Assembly: GCA_964411865.1 (NCBI GenBank) | Contig: CAYPNO010000001.1 | Span: 13,197-77,196, forward strand | Source of the DNA: an uncultured Desulfuromonas sp. | Lineage (GTDB): Bacteria; Desulfobacterota; Desulfuromonadia; Desulfuromonadales; Desulfuromonadaceae | Direction of reading: 5' to 3' | DNA: 64,000 bases | Part shown: positions 5,607-64,000 of the stretch, one piece after another | How the letters are laid out: each line of letters starts with the position of its first letter | Numbering within the stretch: position 1 is the stretch's first letter | Position numbers and translations under genes: made by a program | The notes under the pieces: generated by a model | Databases searched by the model: none | Told to the model about the DNA's origin: nothing | The model's input: only the letters and a program-made list of their open reading frames with translations

Positions 5607-5693
5607 GCCGAAGTGGTGGAACTGGTAGACACGCCATCTTGAGGGGGTGGTGGCCAATAGGTCGTGCGAGTTCGAGTCTCGCCTTCGGCACCA
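5607..5693 (+). tRNA. tRNA-Leu (anticodon GAG), class II, CCA encoded
   Basis: Hand-folded. Acceptor GCCGAAG/CTTCGGC, anticodon stem CCATC/GGTGG with loop TTGAGGG (U33, GAG, G37), long variable arm, T-arm GAGTTCGAGTCTC, 3' ACCA. 87 nt. Confidence 0.9.
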
Positions 5694-46577: not shown

Positions 46578-47726
46578 TTAATTTTTGGTCGTATGGCACA
46601 CAAAACACCCAACATTACCAGCACCGCTAGCTGCGTTCATAACTGCGCCAGTGTCATTGGTTGGGCTGTAGGCCCAGCGCAACAGGTCATCATGCGGCGA
46701 ACCATGCGCACGGTGACATGAGATACAGGTTACAATAGCCTTACCACCAGTAAACGCAACCGCGCTAAGTGAGTGCGTCGCTTTGGTTACACTATCTCCA
46801 AGGTCAAAGGCGACCGGAGCCTCAACACTGTAGGTTCCATCTTCATTGTATGAGCGGTACTCTGAACCTTCTGCGGTATCCCCCATATCATAATCTGAAG
46901 GGTGGCGTAACCAGGGGTTCTCGCCAATGTTGGCATCTTGCCCTGCATTGGAGACAACAGGCCCAGAGTGATAATTTCCATGGCAAGTAGCACAGAAGTA
47001 ACTAATGGTTTTCTGATCAGTCTCAGAACCGCCAGCGGTTATGGTATTTCGTGCAGTTCCATGATATTCATTGCGGTTAGCTGCGCTGCTTGGGCGAAAT
47101 TCCCAATTTTGGTCTTCATACCCGATTATACCATTTAAGAAGCGATAACTTTTTGCCGCTGTACTACCGTCAATAACGGCATCATCCCCGTGATGCGCGC
47201 CAGCGATATCCTGAAAGTCATCAGCGACGCCATGAGGTCCATGACAACCGTACGTTCCCGCGCAGGTAAGCTGACTGCCCCAAGTTGCTTCGCCACCAGC
47301 AATAGCATTGTTGCTGACTGCCGGATCCCATCCTGGCGGATTAAGATTGGGCATATTGGCATCTTTCCCAATAGCTATATTAAGGACGTTATGCCCTTTT
47401 GCATCTACACCATTCGCCACCCAGTAGAAACTTCCACCGGCCAACGTGTCGCCTGTAGTTCCATCTGCCGAAGTGTAGCTAGGTTCAGAGTTGTCGGTAA
47501 TATATGGAATATTGCCATCAACAATGTTCGTGCCAGTATGACAACCAACGCAATCACCTCTGGTCAATGAACGGCTGGGACCTCCCTCAATTTCAGCCTC
47601 CCCATTTTGTGAGTTATGCATGGTGTGGCAATCAGAACACGGCCCTGCCACCTTGGCCCAGGCAGTAGAACCGCTAACGGCAAGCGCCAGAGTCAGTAGC
47701 AGGGATAATAAAACTTTGATATTCAT
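46578..47726 (-). CDS. OmcS-family hexahaem c-type cytochrome (paralogue 1), secreted
   Basis: Signal peptide MNIKVLLSLLLTLALAVSGSTAWA. Haem sites are CSDCH, CVGCH, CAGTYGCH, CATCH, CISCH, CFVCH. Motif order CSDCHTMHNS / GGSFYWV / KGHNV / YRFL / WLRHP / CISCHRAHGS / C-terminal CFVCHTTKN parallels G. sulfurreducens OmcS as I remember its sequence. Strong RBS AGGAGAGGAAGGAG. Confidence 0.8.
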   Translation of the reverse strand: MNIKVLLSLLLTLALAVSGSTAWAKVAGPCSDCHTMHNSQNGEAEIEGGPSRSLTRGDCVGCHTGTNIVDGNIPYITDNSEPSYTSADGTTGDTLAGGSFYWVANGVDAKGHNVLNIAIGKDANMPNLNPPGWDPAVSNNAIAGGEATWGSQLTCAGTYGCHGPHGVADDFQDIAGAHHGDDAVIDGSTAAKSYRFLNGIIGYEDQNWEFRPSSAANRNEYHGTARNTITAGGSETDQKTISYFCATCHGNYHSGPVVSNAGQDANIGENPWLRHPSDYDMGDTAEGSEYRSYNEDGTYSVEAPVAFDLGDSVTKATHSLSAVAFTGGKAIVTCISCHRAHGSPHDDLLRWAYSPTNDTGAVMNAASGAGNVGCFVCHTTKN

Positions 47727-50100: not shown

Positions 50101-51591
50101 TCAGGGACGAAAAATACCAGAGCCAGCGTGACGTTGCTCCACTAGGAGCAAGCGCCGACCAGGCGTGGGCAAAATTATATGTTGGACAACGCGCCTGGAT
50201 ATTGAATCTATTTGCAAAAGATGTACCCCGTCACCCGAAAGGGCATAAACACTGGACGTAACCGGACTATAAAGCATGTCTGCCACGGGGAAAGGCAGGG
50301 TTAGTTGCCCCATTCGGGTCATATCCCGCAGATTAAGCCAGATCAGAGAGTTGCGCGTGCCGCTTCCTATCGCGACCAGCACCTGGTTACGCACCACCAG
50401 CACTTGCTGTGGCGGTGCCGCACATAAATACTGTGCCTGCAGGCTGAACTCCGGTAGCGCATAGCTATGCACCTCATTTATCCGTTCCAGCGCTAGAATT
50501 ACGCGGTTGCTGGTGCTGTCAATATCATATTCAGACGAACCAGCCATATCCGCGACACGATACGCGCTGCTATGGCGGCGATTAGCACCACTCTGTGGGT
50601 CGAATAGATACACACCATCCGCGGCGCTTACCACGATGAGCTCACCCTCTCCTCCATTACTGAAGGTCTCGCCTGCAGCAGTATATTTTTGCCGCAAAAT
50701 TTGGGTGGGGGAAAACCCCGCAACATATATATTTTGCTCCCCATTGCGACGCCCGATGCTCACTAGACGGTTGCCGCCGCTGTCGGTAATAAAAAAGGTG
50801 GGATCTCCGCCAGAGGTAGCTGTCGCCTCCATGGCTGGAGCAAATTCGATGGCGTGCTCTACCAACGGCAAGCCGAGGCGATCCAGCACGCGCCAACTGC
50901 CCCTTTCGCGCAGGGTCATGGAGGTGGGAGCCAGCCCCCAAATCCCCTCATCTTCAAGCAGATACCAATCGTTCCACTGCTCCTGCAGCCCAATCGCAAC
51001 CTGGGTGTGGAGGTTATCGCTGCGCAGGAGCAGCACCTCGGTCCCCCCTCCACCCAGAACCGCAAGCAGGTCACCGGTATAGGGAGGTTGCGCTACATCC
51101 AAGTGCCACGAGCCGTTCCAGTTTGGCGTTGGCGTACCTTCCTGTGCGCGTGCGCCCGCAGGCGATGCATTGAGCCACAACTGTAAACACACGCGCTCAC
51201 CCGCTTCGAGGCGCGCTAAACCCGTGGTCACGTTCTGGGTTGTGATTGTATCACCTTCGGCCAAGGCGATGCGTAGGTGTGGATACAACCCCGGCGCCAG
51301 CAAGCTGCCGGCTAAATAGCGCTGCCCGTCAGGGTGCTTCTCCTCAGCGGGATCGCGCTCCAACGGCAACCACACCTCCGCCGTGGCGTCATACACCTCC
51401 ACTTCACGGATAGCGGCCGCAAGGGGGGCAATCTGTCTCTCCGCGCCATTTAAATACAGATAGATCCCTGTCTGCTCTAGCGTCGCATCGGTACTGAAGG
51501 AGGTGAAACCCCCGTGGGAATGAAGCCCGACTTGATTACAGCCGAGGCAACCCAAGGTAAGGAGCAGAGCACCGAGATAGATTAGGCGCAT
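50101..51591 (-). CDS. Probable lipoprotein with beta-propeller-like repeats
   Basis: MRLIYLGALLLTLGCLGC is a lipobox-like signal. Repeated short beta-strand/turn segments (FFITDSGGNRLVSI, LIVVSAADGVYLFD, VYALSGDGVHLLQID). Start set to ATG 51591, with GAGGA 9 nt upstream. Confidence 0.65.
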   Translation of the reverse strand: MRLIYLGALLLTLGCLGCNQVGLHSHGGFTSFSTDATLEQTGIYLYLNGAERQIAPLAAAIREVEVYDATAEVWLPLERDPAEEKHPDGQRYLAGSLLAPGLYPHLRIALAEGDTITTQNVTTGLARLEAGERVCLQLWLNASPAGARAQEGTPTPNWNGSWHLDVAQPPYTGDLLAVLGGGGTEVLLLRSDNLHTQVAIGLQEQWNDWYLLEDEGIWGLAPTSMTLRERGSWRVLDRLGLPLVEHAIEFAPAMEATATSGGDPTFFITDSGGNRLVSIGRRNGEQNIYVAGFSPTQILRQKYTAAGETFSNGGEGELIVVSAADGVYLFDPQSGANRRHSSAYRVADMAGSSEYDIDSTSNRVILALERINEVHSYALPEFSLQAQYLCAAPPQQVLVVRNQVLVAIGSGTRNSLIWLNLRDMTRMGQLTLPFPVADMLYSPVTSSVYALSGDGVHLLQIDSISRRVVQHIILPTPGRRLLLVEQRHAGSGIFRP

Positions 51592-51606
51592 GGATATCAT
51601 TCCTCT

Positions 51607-52980
51607 TTAAAAAGTCTTTCTGGTACCACCCTTTTTGAGTGGTACTGTCGCAGGCCATTCCCCTGCCGGGTTGGGCACAAACGAGCCGTGATAGTGGCAA
51701 ATTTCACAGCGAATAGCAGGGGGCCTTCCTCCCCCGCCGTCGGAGCCCTCCGCATAATGACACCCGCATCCGGAGACTTGCGATCCCGCATATGGGCTTA
51801 AATTCCCCTGGCCGTGATGCTGCAATTTCCAGTCATTGACGCTGCCTGTACCCAGCATCGAATCATCCTTATGGCACTGGCGGCATTGATTACCGCGTCC
51901 GTCGCTTTCGCTGGCGGTGATAGTCAGTGGCTCACCATTAATGGAGCGCCGTACTAAAAATGGATAGGGTGAACCGTGGGGCTCATGACAGTCGAGGCAA
52001 CTGAGCACATAGTTGCTTTTTCCTCCGGAAGCGTACGGTTCGCGCAGCCAAGTTTCCCCTGTACGGGAGGACTGACCGTGCTTGTCCCCCCCGGTTGAAC
52101 CATCTGTATTGCTCCAGTTGATCATGGTAAGGTAGTCACGCTTATTCCTACCGTTGATGGCAGGCTTGTCTACCCCATGACAATCGTTGCAAAAAGTTAC
52201 GTAGTCGGGAACCAGATCGGGAGCAGAATTGAGTATACCCCCCGGTTCGTATCTCGTTGTGGAATGGCTGAAGAATGGGGCCTGATACCCACCGTATTTG
52301 TTCATGGTTTCGTCGATGTCACCACCGCCGTCGCCCCACAGATTCTCGTGATCAGACGGAAGAGAGATGGCAGTGAAAGTCGGATCTTTTACCGCGCTTA
52401 TATTGCGCCGAGCTCGGTGCGGGTTATGACAGGCCACACAAGGGTTTGAATCTTCTTTGAACCAGGCAAAGTTCTGTGCCGCATACTCTTGGATACCCAA
52501 CAGGTTGTGGTATGAATTCTCCGCGCCGCTGGTGTGGTTGAAATGCTGTAGTATCCCTTCGTCGGTCCCTGCATCGTAACCACCAAAGGTTTCTGCGTAG
52601 TCATGATTTAACAGTACACCGCCCACTTGTTGGGAAGAAGATGCCGCATGGCACTGAAAACAAAAATTATCCTCCTGGGCATAAGTAGCAGCCGCTGCTG
52701 CGCGATTGAAATTTGCACTGAACAGGGCAAACCCACCGGCAGTGGCGCTGACCGGAGCTGGTTGTTCTCCGCCGACACTGGCATGCTGCTCATGACAGTG
52801 GGCACAGTTGCCCTGAGTATATGCATCTGGCATGCTGGTGCGTAGCACTCCATGAGAGGGATCGCCGTGGGCTGAATCTGCATAAGCCCCAGCATACACA
52901 CAAGAGGTGCCCAAAAGGAAAGCAACGACAACAAGGCAAATCCTCAGACCGATAAACACCCACACATCTCGCGTTACCAT
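51607..52980 (-). CDS. Multihaem c-type cytochrome (7 CxxCH plus one CGCH)
   Basis: Signal anchor. CAHCH, CFQCH, CVACH, CNDCH, CLDCH, CRQCH, CEICH, plus CGCH at 51757-51768. Trimmed to the ATG at 52980, 13 nt after the upstream stop. Confidence 0.8.
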   Translation of the reverse strand: MVTRDVWVFIGLRICLVVVAFLLGTSCVYAGAYADSAHGDPSHGVLRTSMPDAYTQGNCAHCHEQHASVGGEQPAPVSATAGGFALFSANFNRAAAAATYAQEDNFCFQCHAASSSQQVGGVLLNHDYAETFGGYDAGTDEGILQHFNHTSGAENSYHNLLGIQEYAAQNFAWFKEDSNPCVACHNPHRARRNISAVKDPTFTAISLPSDHENLWGDGGGDIDETMNKYGGYQAPFFSHSTTRYEPGGILNSAPDLVPDYVTFCNDCHGVDKPAINGRNKRDYLTMINWSNTDGSTGGDKHGQSSRTGETWLREPYASGGKSNYVLSCLDCHEPHGSPYPFLVRRSINGEPLTITASESDGRGNQCRQCHKDDSMLGTGSVNDWKLQHHGQGNLSPYAGSQVSGCGCHYAEGSDGGGGRPPAIRCEICHYHGSFVPNPAGEWPATVPLKKGGTRKTF

Positions 52981-52993
52981 ACAACAAACCTCA

Positions 52994-54142
52994 TTAATTT
53001 TTGTTGCTGTGACATTCGGTACACAATCCACCCGTAGCACTGCCAGCGTAGTTCCAGCGCATCGCTTTGTAATATTTACTGCCGTGGGCGCGGTGGCAAG
53101 AGACACATGTGACGATGGTGTCTTTGCTAAAAGTCACACTATTTTTTACCGTACTCACGGTTTCACTCGCCACCGGCACGGCCTGATTGTAGCTTTTTCC
53201 CGCACCGCCATAGTTGCGGTACTCACTTGAAACACCAGTTTTACCCATATCGTAATCAGTAGGATGACGTAACCACGGCGATGCAGTACCAACATTCCCT
53301 GCACCACTGTGATACGCACCGTGGCAGCGCGCACACAGGCTACTAATGGTGTTGGTGTTACTGCCCCCAGGATTATCTACCCCCTTATACTGGTTATGCG
53401 CGTCTGCTGTCGGGTGGAACTCCCAGTTTGGGTCTTCATAGCCCTCTATCCCCACCAAAAAACGGTATCCAGCTGCCGGAGCATTGCCTGGGTTAATACG
53501 CGCCCCGCCGAGATCGCCATGATGCGCCCCGTGGATGGCACTGGTCTGTGATGCTTCGGCATGGGTACCGTGGCAACCATATACACCAGCGCAGGTAACT
53601 TGCTGCTCGCTCGGCCATATCCCCCCGCCTGGTCTACTGCCGTCAGCAGCAGCACGGCCTCCATCAAAGCCGGGTGGGGTATGGAGGATACTGTCAGCAT
53701 TGGTCAAACCAGCGACATTGTGACCTGTCGCATCCCCACCAACAGCTCCGTAAACTGGCTGAGTCACCCAGTAAAAGCTCCCTCCCGCCAGGGTGGTGGT
53801 ATCGGTTCCGGTACCATTTGCACCATAGGTGGGAGCGGTGGACGTCACAAAGGGGGTATCGCCACCGAACTCATTGGTGCCGGTATGGCATCCGCCGCAA
53901 TCGCTGCGCAATAATGCCTGGTGCGGCCCACCTTCATCCCACTCAGAGAGAACACTATTGTTCTGGCTATAGTGCATGGAGTGACAGTCGGAGCATGGAC
54001 CACTGACGCGCGCATGCACGGGCGCAGCCCAAAACGGCAGATACACAAGCAACGCCAATAGACCAGCAACAAGATCCAGCCTTGCACACAGCGCCGTGCG
54101 GATACGGTGGCAGCCGTTTATGTGTGTGCCTGATCCAGACAT
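52994..54142 (-). CDS. OmcS-family hexahaem c-type cytochrome (paralogue 2)
   Basis: CSDCH, CGGCH, CAGVYGCH, CARCH, CVSCH, CTECH. Shares GGSFYWV, GHNV, YRFL, WLRHPTDYDMG, CVSCHRAHGS and a C-terminal CTECHSNKN with paralogue 1. Start ATG 54142, with AAGGGAG 5 nt upstream. Confidence 0.8.
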   Translation of the reverse strand: MSGSGTHINGCHRIRTALCARLDLVAGLLALLVYLPFWAAPVHARVSGPCSDCHSMHYSQNNSVLSEWDEGGPHQALLRSDCGGCHTGTNEFGGDTPFVTSTAPTYGANGTGTDTTTLAGGSFYWVTQPVYGAVGGDATGHNVAGLTNADSILHTPPGFDGGRAAADGSRPGGGIWPSEQQVTCAGVYGCHGTHAEASQTSAIHGAHHGDLGGARINPGNAPAAGYRFLVGIEGYEDPNWEFHPTADAHNQYKGVDNPGGSNTNTISSLCARCHGAYHSGAGNVGTASPWLRHPTDYDMGKTGVSSEYRNYGGAGKSYNQAVPVASETVSTVKNSVTFSKDTIVTCVSCHRAHGSKYYKAMRWNYAGSATGGLCTECHSNKN

Positions 54143-54187
54143 AAGCACTCCCTTAAGTTCCTTAGCTTCTGTACTGTTCAAACGCTA

Positions 54188-55069
54188 TTAGCGCCTGAAC
54201 AAATCCACGCAGCGATTGACCTCGTCGAGAATCGCAAGAGCTCCACTGCCGCGAGCAGAATCAAGGAACAGGATCTGACGCGGGGCACTGAAACGCCCAA
54301 GGCGGTTGCCGCGTGCCCCGATGCTGTACAAGTGGCGCCCTGCAGGGGAAAAAATCAGCACCTGACACAACCCACGATCGGCTATGAACAATTGCCCCTG
54401 CGGGCTGCGCTCCAGCGCGGACGGGCGTTTAAGATCGTACTGTAATGCGATGCGCTCCCCTTTACTTTCGCTTGCGCCACTGGGATCGACCTGCACAACA
54501 CTGGCGTCAGCCTGTAACAACCAGAGCTTTCCTGATGCGCTCACAACATCAACGCAATTACTCCCATAGCGTCCGCGCACGCTGAGGCTGTCATCCAGCG
54601 CGAGGACATTACCGCTGAGGCGGTCGAGAACCATCAAACCCACTTCCGGATGCCACACCACCTTCTCTGGCAGCATGGCGTTTGCCCCCGTGAGGGGAAA
54701 AGGGAAACGTTCTAGGCGCTGCTCTTCGGGGACTAGTCGCGCCAACGCATTGGCTTTGCGGTCTACGAACCAGAAGCGTCCGGAGCGCTGCAGAGTGATG
54801 GAGACTGGGGTACCAAGATCGCCTCCGGCATCGAAGTCGGAGAGATGCTGCCCGTCGAGATTGAAGGCATGCAGTTTCCCTGCCAGTCCGTCCGCTATAT
54901 AGATGCGCTCCCGCTGTGAATCAAAAACCATCGCCAGGGCAGACTCAAGACGCACGCCGGATTGCGGATCGGGAGCGCGCCACTGGCTGATCCATGCAGC
55001 AGCGGAGGCCGGTATTGGGAAAATACAACAATAGAGCAGCAGAGCGATTATTACCTGTGAATATCTCAT
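54188..55069 (-). CDS. NHL-repeat beta-propeller protein, secreted
   Basis: Signal peptide MRYSQVIIALLLYCCIFPIPASA. NHL-like repeats (RIYIADGLAGKLHAFNLDG, LFIADRGLCQVLIFSPAG). The track ORF extends spuriously into the upstream gene, so it was trimmed to the ATG at 55069. Confidence 0.75.
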   Translation of the reverse strand: MRYSQVIIALLLYCCIFPIPASAAAWISQWRAPDPQSGVRLESALAMVFDSQRERIYIADGLAGKLHAFNLDGQHLSDFDAGGDLGTPVSITLQRSGRFWFVDRKANALARLVPEEQRLERFPFPLTGANAMLPEKVVWHPEVGLMVLDRLSGNVLALDDSLSVRGRYGSNCVDVVSASGKLWLLQADASVVQVDPSGASESKGERIALQYDLKRPSALERSPQGQLFIADRGLCQVLIFSPAGRHLYSIGARGNRLGRFSAPRQILFLDSARGSGALAILDEVNRCVDLFRR

Positions 55070-55079
55070 AGTCTTACCT

Positions 55080-56270
55080 TTAATATCCCGGATGGCACGG
55101 CAGACACAGGCCGCGCTCGCGCCCTCCGCGTAGATTATGTTCAAACATAGTTCCGGTACACGGCGAGTGACACGAGATGCAATCCATCGGAGTGCCGGTG
55201 CGGGGGTCAAGTGAGTCCTCACCGATGGGATGGGTAAAGGTGCTGTGTTCACCGTGACAGGATTCGCAAGCTCCTGCCATGGCGCCGCGCAGCATATAGG
55301 GCTCATCGGAGCCGTGTCCGGCGTGGCAGTCGCTGCAGTGGTTGGCCTGCGGATGAACATGGAGCGCTTGCTTGCGGCGCTCGAGCTTGTCGGCGTGGCA
55401 GCTGCGACACACGCTACCGGCAATCCCTTTTAATAGCCCAGTCTGACTGCTGACATGTGGGCTGTGGCATGCAGTACAGCTCGAATTTCCTTTGCTTTGC
55501 AGATGGGTGTGCACTTGCTGGAACTGGGGCAACACTTGAGAGTGACAGGAGAGGCAGCGCCCATCTGCGCTGGAACCTTTGTGACAAGCAGAGCAGTTGC
55601 CTGTGGCAAAGGGCTTATGTTGCAGAGGGCGCAGCAGGGATTTCTCTGTACTGGCATGGGGATGATGACACTCCAAACAGTTCATCCCCTGCGCCTTGCG
55701 CCCGCTGTGACGCTGCTGCCAAGCAGAATTGGTTTTATGACACCCGAGGCACAATTCAGAATCCTCGCTTCGCAGCAAGCCCTGATGCTCACTGCCGTGG
55801 ACGGCATGGCAACTGGCACACTGCCCTTTTTTAAAGGGGGCGTGCCGTTTTCCTTGAGTGACGCTCAGGCTGGTATGACATGCGGCGCACACCTCTTTCT
55901 GCTGATCCTTGAGCAACCCTTTGAAAGCACTGGCATGGGGAGCATGACAACTGGTGCATTCCCCCTTATGTACCGGGCTGTGGGTGTAGGCGCTCTTTGT
56001 CCAGGCTTCTGTTACCTCGGCATGGCAGCCGTTGCACAACTGCGCCTCCGATTGCTGCAACAAGCCAGCGTGGCGGGAGGCGTGCAGACTATGGCAAGAG
56101 TCGCAGCGGTTACGCGCCACAGGTTCATGCTCATAGGTCCCTTTGAAGTTGATGCTGTCATGACACTGGACACAGTTAAGCGCCAGACTCACGCAGGCAG
56201 GAAAGAGCACAAGTGCAATTACTGTGAGGAGGATCTTCCACCTGCTGCATCTGTAATTTCGATACATCAT
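55080..56270 (-). CDS. Multihaem c-type cytochrome, 16 CxxCH
   Basis: I counted 16 CxxCH motifs in about 396 aa, with an N-terminal signal anchor. The start ATGATG overlaps the TGA of the upstream gene. Confidence 0.88.
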   Translation of the reverse strand: MMYRNYRCSRWKILLTVIALVLFPACVSLALNCVQCHDSINFKGTYEHEPVARNRCDSCHSLHASRHAGLLQQSEAQLCNGCHAEVTEAWTKSAYTHSPVHKGECTSCHAPHASAFKGLLKDQQKEVCAACHTSLSVTQGKRHAPFKKGQCASCHAVHGSEHQGLLRSEDSELCLGCHKTNSAWQQRHSGRKAQGMNCLECHHPHASTEKSLLRPLQHKPFATGNCSACHKGSSADGRCLSCHSQVLPQFQQVHTHLQSKGNSSCTACHSPHVSSQTGLLKGIAGSVCRSCHADKLERRKQALHVHPQANHCSDCHAGHGSDEPYMLRGAMAGACESCHGEHSTFTHPIGEDSLDPRTGTPMDCISCHSPCTGTMFEHNLRGGRERGLCLPCHPGY

Positions 56271-58189
56271 TTGTTTTTCTCCGCATGGCAGGACGCGCAT
56301 TTGCCGTCGGCAAACGGGGTGTGCTGAACCGGGAATAACAGTGAAGCTGTCGGACCGCCGTGGCTGTCGTGACAGGTGGTACAGTTCTGCACCGAGAGCG
56401 GTATGTCGCCGTGGCTTTGAGCCATTTCAGGGGTATCGACTTGATGGCAACTGGTGCAAATCTGCGCAAGCGGACGTACGAGTAGAGCGGCATGGTCTCC
56501 GCCATGGCTGACATGGCACGCAGCACACTCCCCCTCTACGGCAGGCTTATGCCCACTACCTGCCTCCCAGAAATCATCTACCTGCTGATGACATCCGAGG
56601 CACAATCCGGGTTTTTCGCGGCGCAAATATCCCGAGATAGCACTGCCATGCGACTGATGACATGCGCTACAGCGCTGGGTGGCAAAGGGCTGATGCTCAT
56701 ATGCATTGGCGCCAGGCTTGGCCGTGGCGTGACAGGTAAAGCACGCCTCCCCTTCGGGCTGATTGAGCAAAAATGGATGCTCACCTGCGTGGGGCTGATG
56801 ACAATCACGACATTTACCGCGCTCGAACGGCGGATGCCCGTAACCTGCCCCATAGTCAGCTGTAGTGTTTTCATGGCATTGCAAGCATAGCTGTAGCTCT
56901 ACTGCCTCCAGCAACGCAGGCTGTGCTGCCCCATGCGGAGCATGACATGCGCTGCATTTACCCTGAAGCAGAGGAGCGTGTACCGACGGTGCTGCCATAT
57001 CTTGCCGTACCCCAGAATGGCAGCTACTGCAGAGCTTATCTTGCGCAGTTACAAGCAAGGCGGGGGCACCCGCCGCGTGCATGCGATGGCAGCGGCGACA
57101 GTCATTTTGTTGTACAGGGGGATGCTTCACCGTGGTTGCGCGCTCTGGATAAGCGTGACATTTTAGACAAACCGCGCTAGCTGGGGCACGGAGCAGATTG
57201 TCGGCTCCCGCTGCGGCATGATGCGGGGCGTGACATTCGAGACAGTCGCTCTCACCCGCGTCAGGGTGATGCGCCCCGCCAACGCGGATCTCCGGATGAC
57301 ACCCAAGGCACAGGCTACTGCTATCAGTTTTAAGCAGAGACGGAGAATCACTGGCGTGCGGCACATGGCAGGCGGAACAGTTGCCCTCCACCACCGGAGC
57401 ATGCCCCTGATTGAGCTGCGCCTGTTGCTGCACCGTGGCATGACAAAGGGAACAGAGTCGATCTGCGGGGGCTTGGGTGACAGCACTGTTGGACTGGTGA
57501 CAATCGGTGCAATCCCCATTGGCAACAGGTGTATGTACAGAACGCCGCCACAGGGCTGGAGTTCTACCACCATGTGAATCATGACATTCAGAGCAACCTG
57601 CAAGCGGAATCCCTCCATGGGCGGCATTCAAACCCTCGGGTGCGTGACAGGTCGCGCACAGTAGGGTCTCGCTCTGAAGTAGAAGCATAGCTGCGCTGCT
57701 ACTGTGGGGGGCATGGCAGGTGCCACACCCTTGCTGTACGGGGGGATGGATCTGGGCTACCTTGGAGTCAAATCCGGTGCGTGGATGGCATTCAAAACAC
57801 AACTGTTGCGGTGCTACAGGGTGTAGCTTTGCATGCTCGCTCCCGTGGGGGATATGACACCCAGCGCAGTTACCTTCTTTCACCGGTTGGTGCACATTGC
57901 TGAGCAATTGTGACGGACGGAGCTGTTCATGGCAGGAATAGCATACCTCCGGCACCGGTTTGAGCAGATACGCTCCTCCGATAATACCGTGATTACGGTG
58001 ACAAGCGCTGCAATTGTTCTTTTGTGCCGGCTCATGGGGAACCGACTGTTGCGCGATAGATTTAAATTCTTCGTGACATTCAAGGCAGTTTTTCTGGATG
58101 GCGAAGCGTCGCTGCTTGCGTGGGGTACAGGAACACATCAACGCCATCAACACCATCGCCGTTAGTATAAAAAATAGATTACGCCTCAT
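56267..58189 (-). CDS. Multihaem c-type cytochrome, 26 CxxCH
   Basis: I counted 26 CxxCH motifs in about 640 aa, arranged as repeating c7/c3-like units (...H.PV..G.C..CH.PH...). Signal with a possible lipobox (LMCSC). Start ATG 58189, with GGAGG 6 nt upstream. Confidence 0.88.
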   Translation of the reverse strand: MRRNLFFILTAMVLMALMCSCTPRKQRRFAIQKNCLECHEEFKSIAQQSVPHEPAQKNNCSACHRNHGIIGGAYLLKPVPEVCYSCHEQLRPSQLLSNVHQPVKEGNCAGCHIPHGSEHAKLHPVAPQQLCFECHPRTGFDSKVAQIHPPVQQGCGTCHAPHSSSAAMLLLQSETLLCATCHAPEGLNAAHGGIPLAGCSECHDSHGGRTPALWRRSVHTPVANGDCTDCHQSNSAVTQAPADRLCSLCHATVQQQAQLNQGHAPVVEGNCSACHVPHASDSPSLLKTDSSSLCLGCHPEIRVGGAHHPDAGESDCLECHAPHHAAAGADNLLRAPASAVCLKCHAYPERATTVKHPPVQQNDCRRCHRMHAAGAPALLVTAQDKLCSSCHSGVRQDMAAPSVHAPLLQGKCSACHAPHGAAQPALLEAVELQLCLQCHENTTADYGAGYGHPPFERGKCRDCHQPHAGEHPFLLNQPEGEACFTCHATAKPGANAYEHQPFATQRCSACHQSHGSAISGYLRREKPGLCLGCHQQVDDFWEAGSGHKPAVEGECAACHVSHGGDHAALLVRPLAQICTSCHQVDTPEMAQSHGDIPLSVQNCTTCHDSHGGPTASLLFPVQHTPFADGKCASCHAEKNK

Positions 58190-59783
58190 GCGCCACCTCC
58201 GCATGAACCTTCTTCCATACGCGCTGATCTACCTCGATGGTGGAGGCCTCTCGCAGGCGTGAATGCAGGAGTTCTAGCGCCGCATGGCGCTTCTGTTGTT
58301 CCAGTTCGGTGCGCAGCTGTGCGGATACCTGCTCCAGTGGCTGTATCTGCTCCTGCGCACGATGAATAAGCCTAAAGAAATACACCCTATCGCCAATATC
58401 GAGCGCTCCGCTCTGACCTGGAGACAGCCCTTGGAGTGCGACCTGCATAGCTTCGGGTTCGTCCTGCGGATTAACCCAACGCGTGGATACCCCCTCTGGT
58501 GCCAGTGGGCGCACCACTTCATCGAACGCCATCCCTTGTTGTAATTTCTGCCTCAGTTGTTGCGCCAGCCTGACTTCACGCGTCTCAATTTGTGCCATAT
58601 AGAGCACTTCTGGGGTGGTGAAACGTTGCAACTGTTCTACGTACGCCTGCTCTATCTCGGCTGCACTCGCTTCTAGTTCCTGGGGTTTCAGCACCATCTG
58701 CTCCAATTCCCTAACCAAACGGTATTGAGTATAAAAGGAGTAGACCTCTTTGAACGGAACGCGTTGTTCGTAGTGACGTTGCAACGCTTCGAAACCCGTG
58801 AGTGTTTGCGCCACCATATCGCGCACCACTATATCCAGCGCTTGGGGATAGGTAAAATCATTCCGCGTGCTGGCGCGTTTTTCACATTCTTCCAGCGCGG
58901 ATTGATGTAGTAATTCTAAGGGGATATCTCCACCATCAAAAGAAATACCGGTCTTGCCTTCAAGATCAGAAGGGACTCCATCCTCGCTCAAAGCTTCAAT
59001 ATGCTCAGTATAAATTTTTACTGTGTATTTTTCCTTTAATTGAGCCATTAAATCACGATTTAGCTGCGCGCGCTTCTCTTTGCGCCACTGCTTTTCTAGG
59101 GCGGAACGCACGTGGGCGAAGTGTTTAGAATCAAAAGCGTGCTCCTCCTCCACAAATATCAGGTTCCACTGGTCGTGCCATGCGAATGGAGCACCCCAGT
59201 AGCCGGCCTCCAACTGGACTATCTGTTCCCATACGACAGCATCTAGACGTTCGGCATAGGCTTGTTCTAGGCGTGCCAGTCGTTCATTAGGCTCAAATCC
59301 CATCTCTGTCAAAACGTCCTGCGCTGACTGTGTAACAACCGCAGCATGAAACTCACGCGCCTGCTCCTCAGTATCAAGGTGCACAGCCAACAAGGTAAAA
59401 CGGGGGAGATATCTGCCTGAATACAACTGGCGCAGCTCTGCTTCAGACGGGGTCCCAACCTTTCCGAGGATCTCCTCCTCGCGCAATAGCATAAGTGAAC
59501 GAACCTTGAGGAACACCCCCACCTTGCGCTGATATTCAGGGCGAGTATATAACTCCATGGCCTCAGCTTCCTGCACCTTAAGCTGAAAATCTATGAATGA
59601 ATCAGGAGTCTCTGGTACCTCCATCTCCGGCTCACGCCATTGCTGCCACCAGGAAACATACTCGGCATTAGAGTATTCCTGCTGGTTTATAGTTACCAAA
59701 ATGTTGCTATCCCAGAACCAAGCAAAAGCTGGATTGGTCCAGAAGAGCAGGGTGAGGAGTATATATCCTAAACATAAACGCAT
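58179..59783 (-). CDS. SurA/PpiD-like periplasmic chaperone with degenerate parvulin-like domain
   Basis: Signal peptide LLTLLFWTNPAFA. Long helical SurA-N-like regions. The C-terminal LSPGQSGALDIGDRVYFFRLIHRAQ resembles the end of a parvulin PPIase domain, but catalytic residues are not evident. Confidence 0.6.
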   Translation of the reverse strand: MRLCLGYILLTLLFWTNPAFAWFWDSNILVTINQQEYSNAEYVSWWQQWREPEMEVPETPDSFIDFQLKVQEAEAMELYTRPEYQRKVGVFLKVRSLMLLREEEILGKVGTPSEAELRQLYSGRYLPRFTLLAVHLDTEEQAREFHAAVVTQSAQDVLTEMGFEPNERLARLEQAYAERLDAVVWEQIVQLEAGYWGAPFAWHDQWNLIFVEEEHAFDSKHFAHVRSALEKQWRKEKRAQLNRDLMAQLKEKYTVKIYTEHIEALSEDGVPSDLEGKTGISFDGGDIPLELLHQSALEECEKRASTRNDFTYPQALDIVVRDMVAQTLTGFEALQRHYEQRVPFKEVYSFYTQYRLVRELEQMVLKPQELEASAAEIEQAYVEQLQRFTTPEVLYMAQIETREVRLAQQLRQKLQQGMAFDEVVRPLAPEGVSTRWVNPQDEPEAMQVALQGLSPGQSGALDIGDRVYFFRLIHRAQEQIQPLEQVSAQLRTELEQQKRHAALELLHSRLREASTIEVDQRVWKKVHAEVAHEA

Positions 59784-59815: not shown

Positions 59816-60427
59816 TCAGGAGTTACACCCGACCTGCCCTTGTTCAACCCATTTCGCGATTAACTCCCGCGTCATTCTTGCCGCAAGCTCTGTGTAACTA
59901 TAAACCACGCCATAATGCATAAGGCTGCGGTAATCGTCACCCCGGCGTGAATAGAACACCTGACTAATCAGGCTCCCGTCTACTTTAAGCAGTTCGATCT
60001 GCAGAGTTATAAGTGGCACTTTTGTATTACTGTCAGCGTACTCTTGAGTGAAGGTAAGCACCTTGCCCCGAATGTAGCCATCAACCTGCAGCTCTCCCGC
60101 CATGCCCTCGAAAACGGAAGCCGGAGCACTGTATATCTCGCTAGGGAAAGTCTGACTTCGCCGTAAAACACTTCGCATATCCGCAGGGTTGCACACCTGC
60201 ATCTGGGGCGCAGCAATAAGCTCGGTGACCATGGTGCGATAACATAAGGTTGCGGCAGTACTGTTTTCAGTTTCATTCAGCAGTGGCAAAAGCGCCACGC
60301 GACACAAACGTGGCTGCAGTTGTGGTGCCACAGTGTATACATACTCCCCACCCCTGGTGCATCCGACTATACTGCAGAGCAGCAACAGAACCACTGTACG
60401 CGCCACTATTAAAAACCGCTGTTCCAT
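59816..60427 (-). CDS. Lipoprotein, CsgG-N/LpoB-fold-like
   Basis: Lipobox LLCSIVGC. RVALLPLLNETENS motif right after the signal. 203 aa. Confidence 0.65.
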   Translation of the reverse strand: MEQRFLIVARTVVLLLLCSIVGCTRGGEYVYTVAPQLQPRLCRVALLPLLNETENSTAATLCYRTMVTELIAAPQMQVCNPADMRSVLRRSQTFPSEIYSAPASVFEGMAGELQVDGYIRGKVLTFTQEYADSNTKVPLITLQIELLKVDGSLISQVFYSRRGDDYRSLMHYGVVYSYTELAARMTRELIAKWVEQGQVGCNS

Positions 60428-62010
60428 ACCAATTTTTGCTCTTCCATTTCCCCAGGCTCAGTTCCTATTGAATCTGCAGCAATATACTGGCCTACCGGGG
60501 TGGTTTTAGTCCAGTATCTGTTCCCCACGCTATCCTGCACATAGAGTTGACAAAAAAGTTCCTGCTCTTGCGCTACTTTCTGTGGCAGGACGATCTTGGC
60601 TGGCAGTGTTGTACCAGAAATTTTGTACAGCTCATTGTCATTACTGTCAGTTATATACACTTTCCACGCACGAGATTCCGCAGCGGGGTTTTTGTCGCGC
60701 AACAGGAGCGCGGTTTTCCCCTCCTTATGCACTTTGTCCAGCGTCGCTAGCTCTTCCTGCGCTTGGTGTAGATATACTTCGGTGCTTGCAGTTGTGGCGA
60801 ATCCCGCCACATCCTGGATATGAAGGTTTACCGTGTAGACACCTGATGGGAGTGGATACCTACGCGCGTCGATACCAGCCCAGTTTAGGGCTGCCGGCAG
60901 ATCACCGCTGCGCTGCTGGGATAAAACCTGGTTTTTCCTACTATCGAGAACCTCAAATGTCCATGTATCAACGGGGCGCTTGTTCTGCATGCGGGGACGC
61001 AGAGTCAGGCGACGACTAAACACCGGCGCACTGTGGGCGGCATCAGCTACAGCTGAAGATTCCAACTCCAAATGCACCGCCTCGCTTACCGCCTCTATCT
61101 GAGTCACTGTGGTCAAAGTCAGCGCAGATTCAACCACAGTGTGTTTCAGACGAACAGGGTAAACACCTGGCGTGATGGGAGCTTCAAGCTGGGCTACATA
61201 GATATCTCTCAGTTCACCATTCTCAGAACTGGGATGCAGGTCAAAATTCCTCCCCCCAAGTTCAAGAGTAAACGCACTAATATCGGCAACTTCGGTGCGG
61301 ATTTTTATCCGGCATCTAATACTGCCTCCACAGCGCACCAGGGTCTGGGAACAGTCAATCACCTCGACGGCATAGTTTGGATTCATCGTAATGGTGCCAG
61401 GGGTGAAGCCATCAGGGGAGATCCGCCCAAGCGAGTCGACCAGATCCTTTGTGGCCTGCCGCAGCAGACCTTCCAAATCCATATCTTGCTGTAATCCCAG
61501 GAGGGCAATCTGGCCAGCAGCGGAATAGGTGTGTGCTTCACCCCACACCGGAGTGCCGCTGGCGGCATGGTACAGTTGGAGTAAAAGCCCCAGCGTTGGG
61601 GTATTTCCCCCAGTCGATTCGACAATGCTGACACTCAAAAGATTGGTGCAACCTAAACGTATACCCAGTTGGCGACAGGCGAAACGGTCGACTTCACCCA
61701 GATCGCGCAGGCGTAACGCTCGAACTTCCTCCATAACCCGCTCGGGCTCAACCAGATCAAATCCGCTGGAAAGAAGGGCCGCATGCAATGTGCGCTGCAG
61801 TGCTTGATCCCAAGAGGACACCCCCGCACTGAGATCTGCGACCGGCAACAGCGCAATTACCGGGCGTGATTCCTGAGCGTGCCCGACTCCGGGAACGCTC
61901 AGAAACAGCGCTGCAACCCATATACAGATGCACAGTCTTATATATGTGCTGGGAATAACAGCTGCCAAGGCAATTCTCCTCAATGTGCGATGTCCCGTTT
62001 TCAGCTTCAC
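60409..62010 (-). CDS. Secreted protein with N-terminal CsgG-N/LpoB-like module and C-terminal Ig-like beta-rich region
   Basis: Signal ...LFLSVPGVGHA, then VIALLPVADLSAG. The C-terminal region of about 330 aa is beta-rich (e.g. TWTFEVLDSRKNQVL...SGVYTVNLHIQD). GTG start with a weak RBS, so the start is uncertain. Confidence 0.6.
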   Translation of the reverse strand: MKLKTGHRTLRRIALAAVIPSTYIRLCICIWVAALFLSVPGVGHAQESRPVIALLPVADLSAGVSSWDQALQRTLHAALLSSGFDLVEPERVMEEVRALRLRDLGEVDRFACRQLGIRLGCTNLLSVSIVESTGGNTPTLGLLLQLYHAASGTPVWGEAHTYSAAGQIALLGLQQDMDLEGLLRQATKDLVDSLGRISPDGFTPGTITMNPNYAVEVIDCSQTLVRCGGSIRCRIKIRTEVADISAFTLELGGRNFDLHPSSENGELRDIYVAQLEAPITPGVYPVRLKHTVVESALTLTTVTQIEAVSEAVHLELESSAVADAAHSAPVFSRRLTLRPRMQNKRPVDTWTFEVLDSRKNQVLSQQRSGDLPAALNWAGIDARRYPLPSGVYTVNLHIQDVAGFATTASTEVYLHQAQEELATLDKVHKEGKTALLLRDKNPAAESRAWKVYITDSNDNELYKISGTTLPAKIVLPQKVAQEQELFCQLYVQDSVGNRYWTKTTPVGQYIAADSIGTEPGEMEEQKLVWNSGF

Positions 62011-62035
62011 CTTTTAACCCCTGGTTTTAGCCTTT

Positions 62036-62617
62036 TCAGTACGTCAGGGTAAGAAGTATATCTTCTATCAATTGTCTAGCCACCTGATGCAAATTATCGC
62101 TTTCAAGTCCGAAAATGCGGTCTTTGGTGCTGTAACCGGAGCCAACGTGGCTCGCTTGCCACAAGATTTTTCCGCTGTTAATTTCTACCAGGCGCAGGGT
62201 CAGCGCAACCACTGGATAGGAATAACTTCCGTTGCGTTCAAGACTGTATGCTTCAACCGAGCCGGCCAGATATGCCTGGACGCCAAACTCACGCCCTAAC
62301 CTACGCGCTGTTGCCTGTGGGATGGAGGTCTTATCTTCCCCTACAATTTCGTCATTAAGAAAACGGCGCAGGTCCCCTTTTTCCAGAACCTCAAAAAATC
62401 CCATGCTCATCACTTGGGTACTCAGCAGATCACGCACCTGCTTTTCTACAAAGCGCTCCGCCGTATTATTTTCAAAGGGAAGCACAGCAACCCTTTTCAC
62501 AAAGCCGGTCGCAAGTGCTGGATCGGTGTGATAGCTTGGAACCGCTGCACACCCCGCTAAAAACATCAGCATAATTATTGTCAGAACCACCCGCACTTTA
62601 TGCCCATCACTCAACAT
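62036..62617 (-). CDS. Lipoprotein, CsgG-N/LpoB-fold-like
   Basis: Lipobox MFLAGC. Motif order RVAVLPFENNTAE / GFFEVLEKGDLRRFLNDE / AYLAGSVEAYS / VALTLRLVEINSGKILW parallels the periplasmic domain of E. coli CsgG as I recall it. At 193 aa it is too short to contain the CsgG pore hairpins. Confidence 0.65.
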   Translation of the reverse strand: MLSDGHKVRVVLTIIMLMFLAGCAAVPSYHTDPALATGFVKRVAVLPFENNTAERFVEKQVRDLLSTQVMSMGFFEVLEKGDLRRFLNDEIVGEDKTSIPQATARRLGREFGVQAYLAGSVEAYSLERNGSYSYPVVALTLRLVEINSGKILWQASHVGSGYSTKDRIFGLESDNLHQVARQLIEDILLTLTY

Positions 62618-62728: not shown

Positions 62729-64000
62729 CTAGAAATTGTAACTGGCGTTGGCAGAGTAACTCCACTGGGCCAGATCAGCTGTTGCATACTGCACGCTCTG
62801 GCGCAGACTGAACCGTTGGGTCATTAACCAGATTAACGAGGCTGAATAATTCTGGGTTACGTCATCCTCAAACGTATATGCGGCGGTGGCATTGAACTGC
62901 AGGTCACTGCTAAGGCGCAGTGAAACGCTGGTACTTGCACTCACACTGTCGTCATCACCAGCATAACTAATGCTGGTATTGCTCTGCAGGGTATCAGAGG
63001 GTCGATAGTTAAGATTTAAACCGCCATCGTAAGTAGACGAATTTCCACCTTCGCGTATCGACTCGGTAGAGGTTGAGCCGTAATTTACATACATGGTAAG
63101 ACGTAGACTGGGGCGTAACTGGGTGCTGGTATCTAAGGTCCAGGAGGATGTTGTAGTTTCGCTGTTGTTGAGCATATCTTCGTTTTGAGACCAGCTCCCG
63201 TTCAGACTGGCAGACCAGTCAGGTAAAAGTTGTGCTACAAGACTGGAACTAACGGTATAGGTCCGGTTCTGCAGATCGGAGTCGAGCAGATTTTCACTGC
63301 AGTTAAAACTAAGAGCCGTGGCCAGAGTACTGAGAGGATCCCATTGTGCCGACAGGGTCCAGTTGCGCCCAGTCTCGGTTTCCTGTTTTTCTACCATGGT
63401 TTCATTTTCACTGTAGAGCGCCTGAAAAGAGAGGACTGCGACAGGATGCCATTGAATACCGTAGGTTTGCTGAACTTCTTCAGTTTCTGCCCCCTCCCCG
63501 GGCTCACTCAAATCATATCCATAACTGGCGGTTACAATCCAAGCCTCAAAAGGACGCAGATGCGCATTGGTCTGATATTTATAACGCTTAAAGGTATTGG
63601 TGGTTTTGATTTCATCCCCATCTGCGATAACAGCCCGACTCCAGATGCATTCACTTATCTGCACTGGGTCCCACACTCCCGCCGGTTCATGCAGGACAAT
63701 CTTTACGTAAGGCGCCTTAAGGGGTTGGGCCAGCTCCAATATGAAGCTCCAGCGCTCAAACACCGCATTTTCCTCCCAGCGTCGAGTTGCTCCCACCGAA
63801 CTCTTTGTCCAGTCGCGGTTGTTGTTACTTGTATAGACGCTGGCCTGAAGCTGAGAGCGAAAGAAGGGATCGGGATCCCCCATAAAAACCACTTCAATCT
63901 GATCGATGTCCTGACTATTAAGCCGCGCCGCGATGCTCAAATCCTCATCTTCAGATTCGCTCCACACCTGAGCAGGCACATCTTCGCGACCATCTCCGAG
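62729..64000 (-). CDS. Outer-membrane beta-barrel protein (N-terminus beyond the window)
   Basis: The frame is open to base 64000 (LGDGRED upstream of the track's GTG). The C-terminal roughly 260 aa show alternating hydrophobic/polar strands rich in S/T/N/Y and end in ...WSYSANASYNF, a terminal aromatic that fits an OMP beta-signal. The N-terminal part is a separate soluble-looking domain. Confidence 0.65.
   Translation of the reverse strand, partial: LGDGREDVPAQVWSESEDEDLSIAARLNSQDIDQIEVVFMGDPDPFFRSQLQASVYTSNNNRDWTKSSVGATRRWEENAVFERWSFILELAQPLKAPYVKIVLHEPAGVWDPVQISECIWSRAVIADGDEIKTTNTFKRYKYQTNAHLRPFEAWIVTASYGYDLSEPGEGAETEEVQQTYGIQWHPVAVLSFQALYSENETMVEKQETETGRNWTLSAQWDPLSTLATALSFNCSENLLDSDLQNRTYTVSSSLVAQLLPDWSASLNGSWSQNEDMLNNSETTTSSWTLDTSTQLRPSLRLTMYVNYGSTSTESIREGGNSSTYDGGLNLNYRPSDTLQSNTSISYAGDDDSVSASTSVSLRLSSDLQFNATAAYTFEDDVTQNYSASLIWLMTQRFSLRQSVQYATADLAQWSYSANASYNF

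Follow-up and report, generated by a model that had tools for sequence, protein, structure and literature searches.

Three consecutive genes in a 64,000-nucleotide stretch of DNA from an uncultured Desulfuromonas sp. (contig CAYPNO010000001.1, positions 13,197 to 77,196; hereafter the window) encode exported proteins, here called P1, P2 and P3, beside the gene for a beta-barrel in a locus of OmcS-family cytochromes. We propose, with a probability of roughly two in three, that they are the periplasmic-face, PelC-like component of the machine that exports and assembles OmcS-family nanowires and that is encoded in Geobacter sulfurreducens by osc, the omcS-companion cluster. P1 would be OscF, and P2 and P3 together a split OscG that bears immunoglobulin (Ig)-like domains. 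The osc machinery itself was published in 2025. Added here are the kinship with PelC, the equivalence of domains between the three-gene and two-gene forms of the block, and the widespread Ig-bearing architecture of P2.

Results

The three open reading frames (ORFs) described in an earlier note on this DNA, made from the letters alone, lie consecutively on the minus strand. P1 (62036..62617) encodes a predicted lipoprotein of 193 amino acids (aa), with the lipobox LAGC and a Cys23 that is nearly invariant in 28 homologues, and consists of one domain of the PelC/LpoB/CsgG type. P2 (60409..62010; 533 aa) opens with a Sec-type signal, followed by a PelC-like N-terminal domain at about residues 49-196, three predicted Ig-like domains and a conserved tail. 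P3 (59816..60427; 203 aa) is a second predicted lipoprotein (lipobox IVGC, Cys23), whose PelC-like domain is divergent. The picture of a lipoprotein trio drawn in the earlier note therefore holds for P1 and P3 by their lipoboxes and fails for P2, whose signal is of the signal peptidase I type (cleavage between GHA and QE), with no lipobox in 12 of 12 family members. In each protein a (V/I)A(V/L)LP string stands 5-20 residues past the signal sequence, and the segments quoted for it were found as RVAVLPFENNTAE (P1 42-54), VIALLPVADLSAG (P2 51-63) and RVALLPLLNETENS (P3 43-56). The further P1 motifs that had been listed, FFEVLEKGDLRRFLNDE, GSVEAY and VVALTLRLVEINSGKILW, are likewise present.

The genes are tightly packed. 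P1 and P2 are 25 nucleotides (nt) apart, the start of P3 overlaps the stop of P2 by 19 nt, and 32 nt separate P3 from the next gene. A promoter and terminator scan of the block returned no signal above chance, which, like the tight gaps, is consistent with co-transcription. Seven nt ahead of the GTG start of P2 stands AGGGG, a plausible ribosome-binding site. Each of the three genes is conserved, with 72 homologue clusters for P1, 12 for P2 and 13 for P3. An exhaustive profile search with P2 found 263 representatives at E<=1e-10, many of them near full-length matches of 480-535 aa.

Paralogy among the three proteins, as first suggested from their motifs, was upheld above chance by BLASTP and by comparison of family profiles. 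BLASTP aligned P1 with P3 at E=1e-6 and with P2 at E=3e-4. With hhalign, the family profiles of P1 and P3 matched at 98% probability (E=1.4e-13), and that of P1 matched residues 49-196 of P2 at 95.6% probability (E=1.2e-8). As judged by these comparisons, P1, P2 and P3 carry a homologous alpha/beta domain that starts at the (V/I)A(V/L)LP strand.

An AlphaFold model of P2 (predicted local distance difference test score, pLDDT, 70.9) places beta-sandwich domains at residues 213-308, 314-414 and 420-500, behind an N-terminal domain in the order beta-alpha-alpha-alpha-beta-beta-beta-alpha, as in P1 and P3. Foldseek matched the beta-sandwich domains to generic Ig/FN3 arrays, and a match to FlgD_ig stayed below threshold. 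This moderate-confidence model and its fold matches support the earlier assignment, made from sequence, of some 330 aa in P2 to Ig-like beta structure. Against the PDB, the P2 family profile gave only weak FlgD/propeller noise and the P3 family profile no match; P3 also has no Pfam match.

Two further features of these proteins were observed. The C-terminus of the P2 family (60409-60450 in the window) carries a conserved tail, K-(F/L)-V-W-N-x-x-F, which is predicted to be disordered (pLDDT <50) and could be a docking or beta-signal-like peptide. The P3 family has an invariant Cys42 inside its LCRVALLP strand, an invariant Cys201 in a C-terminal GQIGC and a nearly invariant C62. P1 has no such cysteines, and those of P3 may form disulfides.

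The earlier note had placed the domain among the CsgG, LpoB, GNA1162 and TolB-N families, and at the level of the superfamily this is right. P1 exceeds the Pfam thresholds for LpoB (34.7 bits, threshold 22.3), its best Pfam match, and for CsgG (29.6 bits, threshold 20.8). The fold searches did not give the outcome, a set of unrelated families, that had been named as a ground for abandoning the idea. These relatives have in common the alpha/beta domain with a hydrophobic beta-1 strand followed by N-x-T/S. The emphasis on LpoB and CsgG, however, did not survive. The P1 family profile matched the PelC structures 5T11, 5T10, 9H80 and 5T0Z at E-values from 4e-10 to 1e-7 over ~120-155 residues, with Paraburkholderia PelC at ~5e-10, P. 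aeruginosa PelC in the PelBC complex (9H80) at 9e-9 and Geobacter metallireducens PelC (5T0Z) at 1e-7; GNA1162 stood at 7e-7. LpoB structures were matched at E=1e-3 over ~30 residues, and CsgG structures at 0.18 over 32 residues. By profile comparison, the closest solved relatives of P1 are the PelC ring lipoproteins, rather than CsgG or LpoB.

P1 is also 30-33% identical to the PelC proteins of Magnetococcales pel operons. These came from a scan of genome contigs with one broad P1 motif, which picked up numerous unrelated LpoB-like loci and reached no Geobacter genome, and in which the informative loci were L001-L013. Three Magnetococcales loci among those gathered are genuine pel operons, with PelG (431 bits), PelF, PelD and a PelB rich in tetratricopeptide repeats (TPR). 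In the Magnetococcales pel operon L008:4310-9841, and also in L006 and L010, two proteins apparently share the PelB function: a TPR protein of 1076 aa and another of 546-726 aa, which ends in an aromatic residue and immediately precedes a PelC of more than usual length (278-307 aa).

P1 resembles PelC in its size, its lipobox and the position of its gene right after that of an outer-membrane barrel. The window locus, in contrast, has no pel genes and does not look like a genuine pel operon such as that of L008; its neighbours are cytochromes, a peptidyl-prolyl isomerase (PPIase) and an NHL protein. PelC forms one homo-oligomer, whereas the window encodes three distinct paralogous domains, and the cargo, a cationic polysaccharide for PelC, would here be a folded multiheme protein.

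The locus had been described as resembling no characterised system, a statement that is now out of date. Two papers (PMC13194489 and PMC12977616) describe the osc cluster, to which the block corresponds. In G. sulfurreducens, GSU2499-GSU2497 are OscE, OscF and OscG (Shen et al. 2025, Cell Chem Biol 32:239, as reported by citing papers), and GSU2497 is annotated as a lipoprotein. PMC13194489 gives oscC as GSU2501, an omcS-like hexaheme, oscI as GSU2495 and oscJ as GSU2494, aligns OscD models over 473 residues and, citing Shen et al. 2025, relates proposed roles for OscE, OscF and OscG in OmcS secretion, for OscH in folding and for OscD in morphology. According to the same paper, the need for OscF and OscG in secretion of the OmcS-type subunit is reported for G. 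sulfurreducens as a genetic phenotype. An eight-gene block downstream of GSU2501, GSU2500-2493, is tied to nanowire maturation and secretion in PMC12977616. We found no link between PelC and OmcS or osc in the literature searched, outside of which the primary osc paper stood; mentions of "PelC" in Geobacter papers proved to be the instrument brand Pelco.

Five Geobacter-type loci (L066, L070, L077, L118 and L129) supplied the gene order for comparison. They run from a hexaheme through a propeller lipoprotein (~470-494 aa), a barrel (~720-790 aa), a P1-like protein (~190 aa) and a tandem lipoprotein (~375-430 aa) to a SurA-like PPIase and a 26-heme cytochrome; the propeller lipoprotein is YNCE-like (42.9 bits, threshold 27.1). 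With the published oscC, oscI and oscJ as anchors, and because exactly four genes separate the hexaheme from the PPIase, the propeller corresponds to OscD, the barrel to OscE, the P1-like protein to OscF and the 375-430 aa lipoprotein to OscG. Within the OscG-type protein, the P2 profile matches domain 1 only (~48-197), the P3 profile domain 2 only (~232-372) and the P1 profile both. Since P2 maps to the first domain and P3 to the second, the two genes together correspond to a split OscG, P3 being the equivalent of its domain 2, and P1 corresponds to OscF; by gene order, the barrel is the OscE equivalent. An assignment by simple order, with the barrel as OscD and P1, P2 and P3 as OscE, OscF and OscG, was dropped, as OmcS loci have the ~470 aa propeller between hexaheme and barrel and a tandem lipoprotein in place of P2 and P3.

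The window block therefore shares with osc, beside OmcS-family hexahemes, a barrel, a single-domain PelC-like lipoprotein, further PelC-like domains, a SurA-like PPIase, 26- and 16-heme cytochromes and an NHL protein. It differs in that the OscG equivalent is two genes, of which P2 has acquired three Ig-like domains and has no lipobox, and P3 has a lipobox of its own. Relative to the block, the OmcS-like gene sits downstream in the window and upstream in Geobacter, and no YNCE-type propeller was recognised beside the barrel inside the window.

Gene order in the window and in syntenic loci agrees with the earlier placement of the genes next to a beta-barrel in an OmcS-family cytochrome locus. 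The full block recurs at three independent sites: L001, a Thermodesulfobacteriota metagenome-assembled genome with a P1 48% identical; L059, also given as Desulfuromonas sp. AOP6, a complete genome; and the contig L063, with a P1 42% identical. In every syntenic locus the P1 gene lies directly downstream of the barrel gene. For a search anchored on OmcS, residues 8-346 of the protein (6EF8) were rebuilt from an alignment, and 79 metagenomic loci were collected whose OmcS genes are 53-72% identical. Where at least 6 kb of downstream sequence was present (n=19), 16 loci carry the barrel and 15 a P1 homologue, both on the same strand, the latter typically starting ~3.9 kb past the OmcS gene. With 15 of the 19 carrying it, the absence from syntenic OmcS-like loci that had been named as a ground for rejection was not seen.

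More distant loci keep part of the arrangement. L064, which has YDG domains, and the P0052 contig retain the core of barrel, P1 and PPIase, and their second or third genes differ; the outgroup L065 has CsgG/LpoB-like genes and no cytochromes. In some OmcS loci (L093:15782-20533, also L085, L096 and L123), the gene for the second PelC-like protein has grown to 1000-1580 aa and encodes six MBG domains and one Big_2 domain. The periplasmic or surface stalk predicted at this second gene seems highly variable.

The OscE-equivalent barrel gene (62729..64000, minus strand) is cut by the window edge. Its 3' 424 codons are present, ending ...SYNF, and the ORF has no upstream stop codon within the window. 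Full-length homologues measure 662-787 aa, and in most the last residue is F or Y; the one in L077 scores 28.6 bits against Pfam OMP_b-brl (threshold 28.7) and has weak F5_F8_type_C matches. A discoidin/CBM32-like (F5/8 type C) domain, with a weak CBM32 match, appears to sit in the middle of the beta-barrel-like sequence in the window (62729-64000), in L059:7790-9883 and in L077:12984-15155, which is an unusual arrangement.

Past P3, four more genes on the minus strand have osc counterparts by position and family. The OscH equivalent is a SurA/PpiD-like PPIase (58179..59783; Rotamase_2, 49.5 bits), whose L077 orthologue also has SurA_N domains and whose position is kept in all loci. The OscI equivalent is a 26-heme c-type cytochrome (56267..58204; 26 CxxCH motifs; Paired_CXXCH_1, 390 bits), with 26-heme homologues in L001, L004, L005, L007, L013, L059 and L129, and the OscJ equivalent a 16-heme c-type cytochrome (55080..56300) recognised by 16 CxxCH motifs and Pfam. 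In the OscK position stands an NHL-type beta-propeller (54188..55423) with weak NHL/SGL/propeller matches. Its ORF overlaps the preceding gene by 344 nt; its homologues in L001, L059 and L063 are 296-313 aa long, and its true start is probably internal, at MRYSQVIIALLL..., giving ~295 aa. The ORF of a 7-heme cytochrome (51607-53106, minus strand) likewise overlaps its preceding gene, by 113 nt, and probably starts internally at MVTRDVWVFIGL....

Two hexahemes of the OmcS family follow, both on the minus strand. The first (52994..54181) is a candidate nanowire subunit, its family profile matching OmcS (6EF8) at E=7.9e-86. The second (46578..47726) is 49% identical to it and falls in the same family alignment. 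Single-sequence PDB searches with both found no match; the match to OmcS came from the family profile. In both hexahemes, and in L001:10802-11791 and L059:18428-19516, the third heme motif reads C-A-G-(V/T)-(Y/S)-G-C-H (CX5CH), whereas OmcS and the Geobacter-type homologues have a canonical CSSCH or CTSCH at this position. Between the cytochrome genes lies a 499 aa lipoprotein (50101-51600, minus strand; lipobox TLGC) with no Pfam match. This protein may correspond to the OscD-type propeller lipoprotein; BLAST against the L077 propeller gave a weak E=0.078.

The remainder of the window (1-46000) is ordinary. It holds GAPDH, PGK, tRNA-Leu(GAG) at 5607-5693, KARI, a Nuo operon, an aminotransferase and a transketolase, together with a chemotaxis cluster (a CheA-CheW-receiver hybrid, three methyl-accepting chemotaxis proteins, CheB and a SpoIIE-type phosphatase), a hybrid histidine kinase, a PAS histidine kinase and a GGDEF protein. 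G+C falls to 0.42-0.44 at 20-26 kb.

Discussion

The ring of the PelBC complex is built of twelve PelC lipoproteins. It has a 3.2 nm pore, sits on the periplasmic rim of a 16-stranded barrel and is held there by electrostatic contacts and acyl chains (PMC12141448). Homology to PelC, together with gene adjacency, makes a hetero-oligomeric ring under the OscE-type barrel the most likely reading of the three genes. Lipid anchors would tie P1 and P3 to the inner leaflet of the outer membrane. Like PelC on PelB, they and the N-terminal domain of P2 would join in a ring that rests on the barrel's periplasmic rim. The SurA-like PPIase would bring heme-loaded OmcS-like subunits, the ring would guide or hold them at the barrel, and the Ig-like stalk of P2 would reach into the periplasm. 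We infer the formation of the ring, its hetero-oligomeric composition, its docking to the barrel, its cargo and what the Ig-like domains do. Across clades, the two-gene form and the three-gene form alike keep three PelC-like domains per unit. This conservation is compatible with ring orders in multiples of three and constrains the stoichiometry of models.

Several points weigh against this proposal. The assignment to OscF and OscG was drawn from gene order, lengths and citing papers, not from direct comparison with the G. sulfurreducens sequences; the homology shown is to the counterparts in metagenomic loci with an OmcS 53-72% identical to that of G. sulfurreducens. The ring of P1, P2 and P3 is itself an analogy with PelC, and hhalign of the barrel family against the Pel barrel gave a probability of 0.15%, with no detectable kinship. 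A pore of the PelC type, at 3.2 nm, may leave little room for a hexaheme subunit in its folded state. Compared directly, P2 and P3 are weakly similar (E=9e-4, probability 23%), and the paralogy therefore runs via P1, the least diverged copy. The P3 model is of low confidence (pLDDT 48.9), so its fold matches count as supporting evidence only; Foldseek retrieved with it FlgT, GNA1162, PelC dodecamers, PelBC and CsgG, and this retrieval of superfamily members agrees with the profile match between P3 and P1. Finally, L003 and L005 have the lipoprotein-barrel-PPIase core and large cytochromes, with no OmcS-like gene within the fetched DNA.

These two loci also count towards a different view, in which the 26- and 16-heme cytochromes, with the barrel and the PelC-like proteins, would make up a porin-cytochrome-type electron conduit that crosses the outer membrane and charges the nanowire, the lipoproteins clamping periplasmic cytochromes to the barrel with no export of subunits. 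The 26- and 16-heme cytochromes accompany the P1 homologue in every cytochrome-type locus, L003 and L005 included. The block nevertheless follows OmcS-family genes in most OmcS-anchored loci, and a SurA-like chaperone suits protein export or assembly better than it suits a conduit, which we regard as unlikely.

It is similarly improbable that the three proteins are a structural collar, one that would anchor the base of the filament at the outer membrane or peptidoglycan without transport, in the manner of FlgT in the flagellar H-ring, with the Ig domains of P2 as a spacer. FlgT (3W1E) and the LPHT ring (8Z5N), which head the fold matches of the P3 model, point this way, and the P2 stalk and the larger Ig/MBG expansions in its relatives resemble spacers or adhesive modules. 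Those matches come, however, from a model of low confidence. Sequence profiles instead point to PelC, which is part of an exporter, and the role given to OscE, OscF and OscG in PMC13194489 is secretion.

Two readings taken from the family names fail the tested family features. That P1, P2 and P3 themselves form a CsgG-like outer-membrane channel is suggested by the Pfam CsgG score of P1 and by sources that name its homologues CsgG/HfaB, yet we consider it very unlikely. CsgG builds a 36-stranded pore from two beta-hairpins per protomer, whereas the Pfam match of P1 covers model positions 11-151 of 210 and the mature protein, at 170 aa, has no space for transmembrane hairpins, as the earlier note had recognised; CsgG structures match at E ~0.2 over 32 residues only, and a dedicated barrel gene is always adjacent. 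Least probable of all are LpoB-like activators of peptidoglycan synthases that would remodel the wall for passage of the filament: LpoB is the best Pfam match and the name of P1 homologues in some NCBI records, but P1 scores 35.6 bits against the NCBIfam LpoB equivalog TIGR02722 (cut-off 110.55), matches LpoB structures over ~30 residues only, has no gene for a penicillin-binding protein nearby, and with only ~18 residues between Cys23 and strand beta-1 excludes a long linker of the LpoB type. The LpoB and CsgG labels now used by some databases should be dropped for these proteins.

The ring-on-barrel proposal can be carried further, though here we regard the case as doubtful: the outer-membrane end of the OmcS machine would be a repurposed PelBC-type module, with three distinct PelC-like domains (P1, the N-terminal domain of P2 and P3, or OscF and both domains of OscG) making up a hetero-oligomeric ring (for example 4 x 3 = 12) under an unrelated, discoidin-bearing barrel, and with variable Ig/MBG stalks in the periplasm. 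How cytochrome nanowires cross the outer membrane and attach to it has been described as an open question (bioRxiv 10.1101/2025.10.22.684050). Kinship with PelC, beside a barrel, gives that question a testable ring-on-barrel model and a solved template (PelBC, 9H80). If the model is true, an architecture for polysaccharide export would have been adapted to export or mount a filament of folded multiheme protein.

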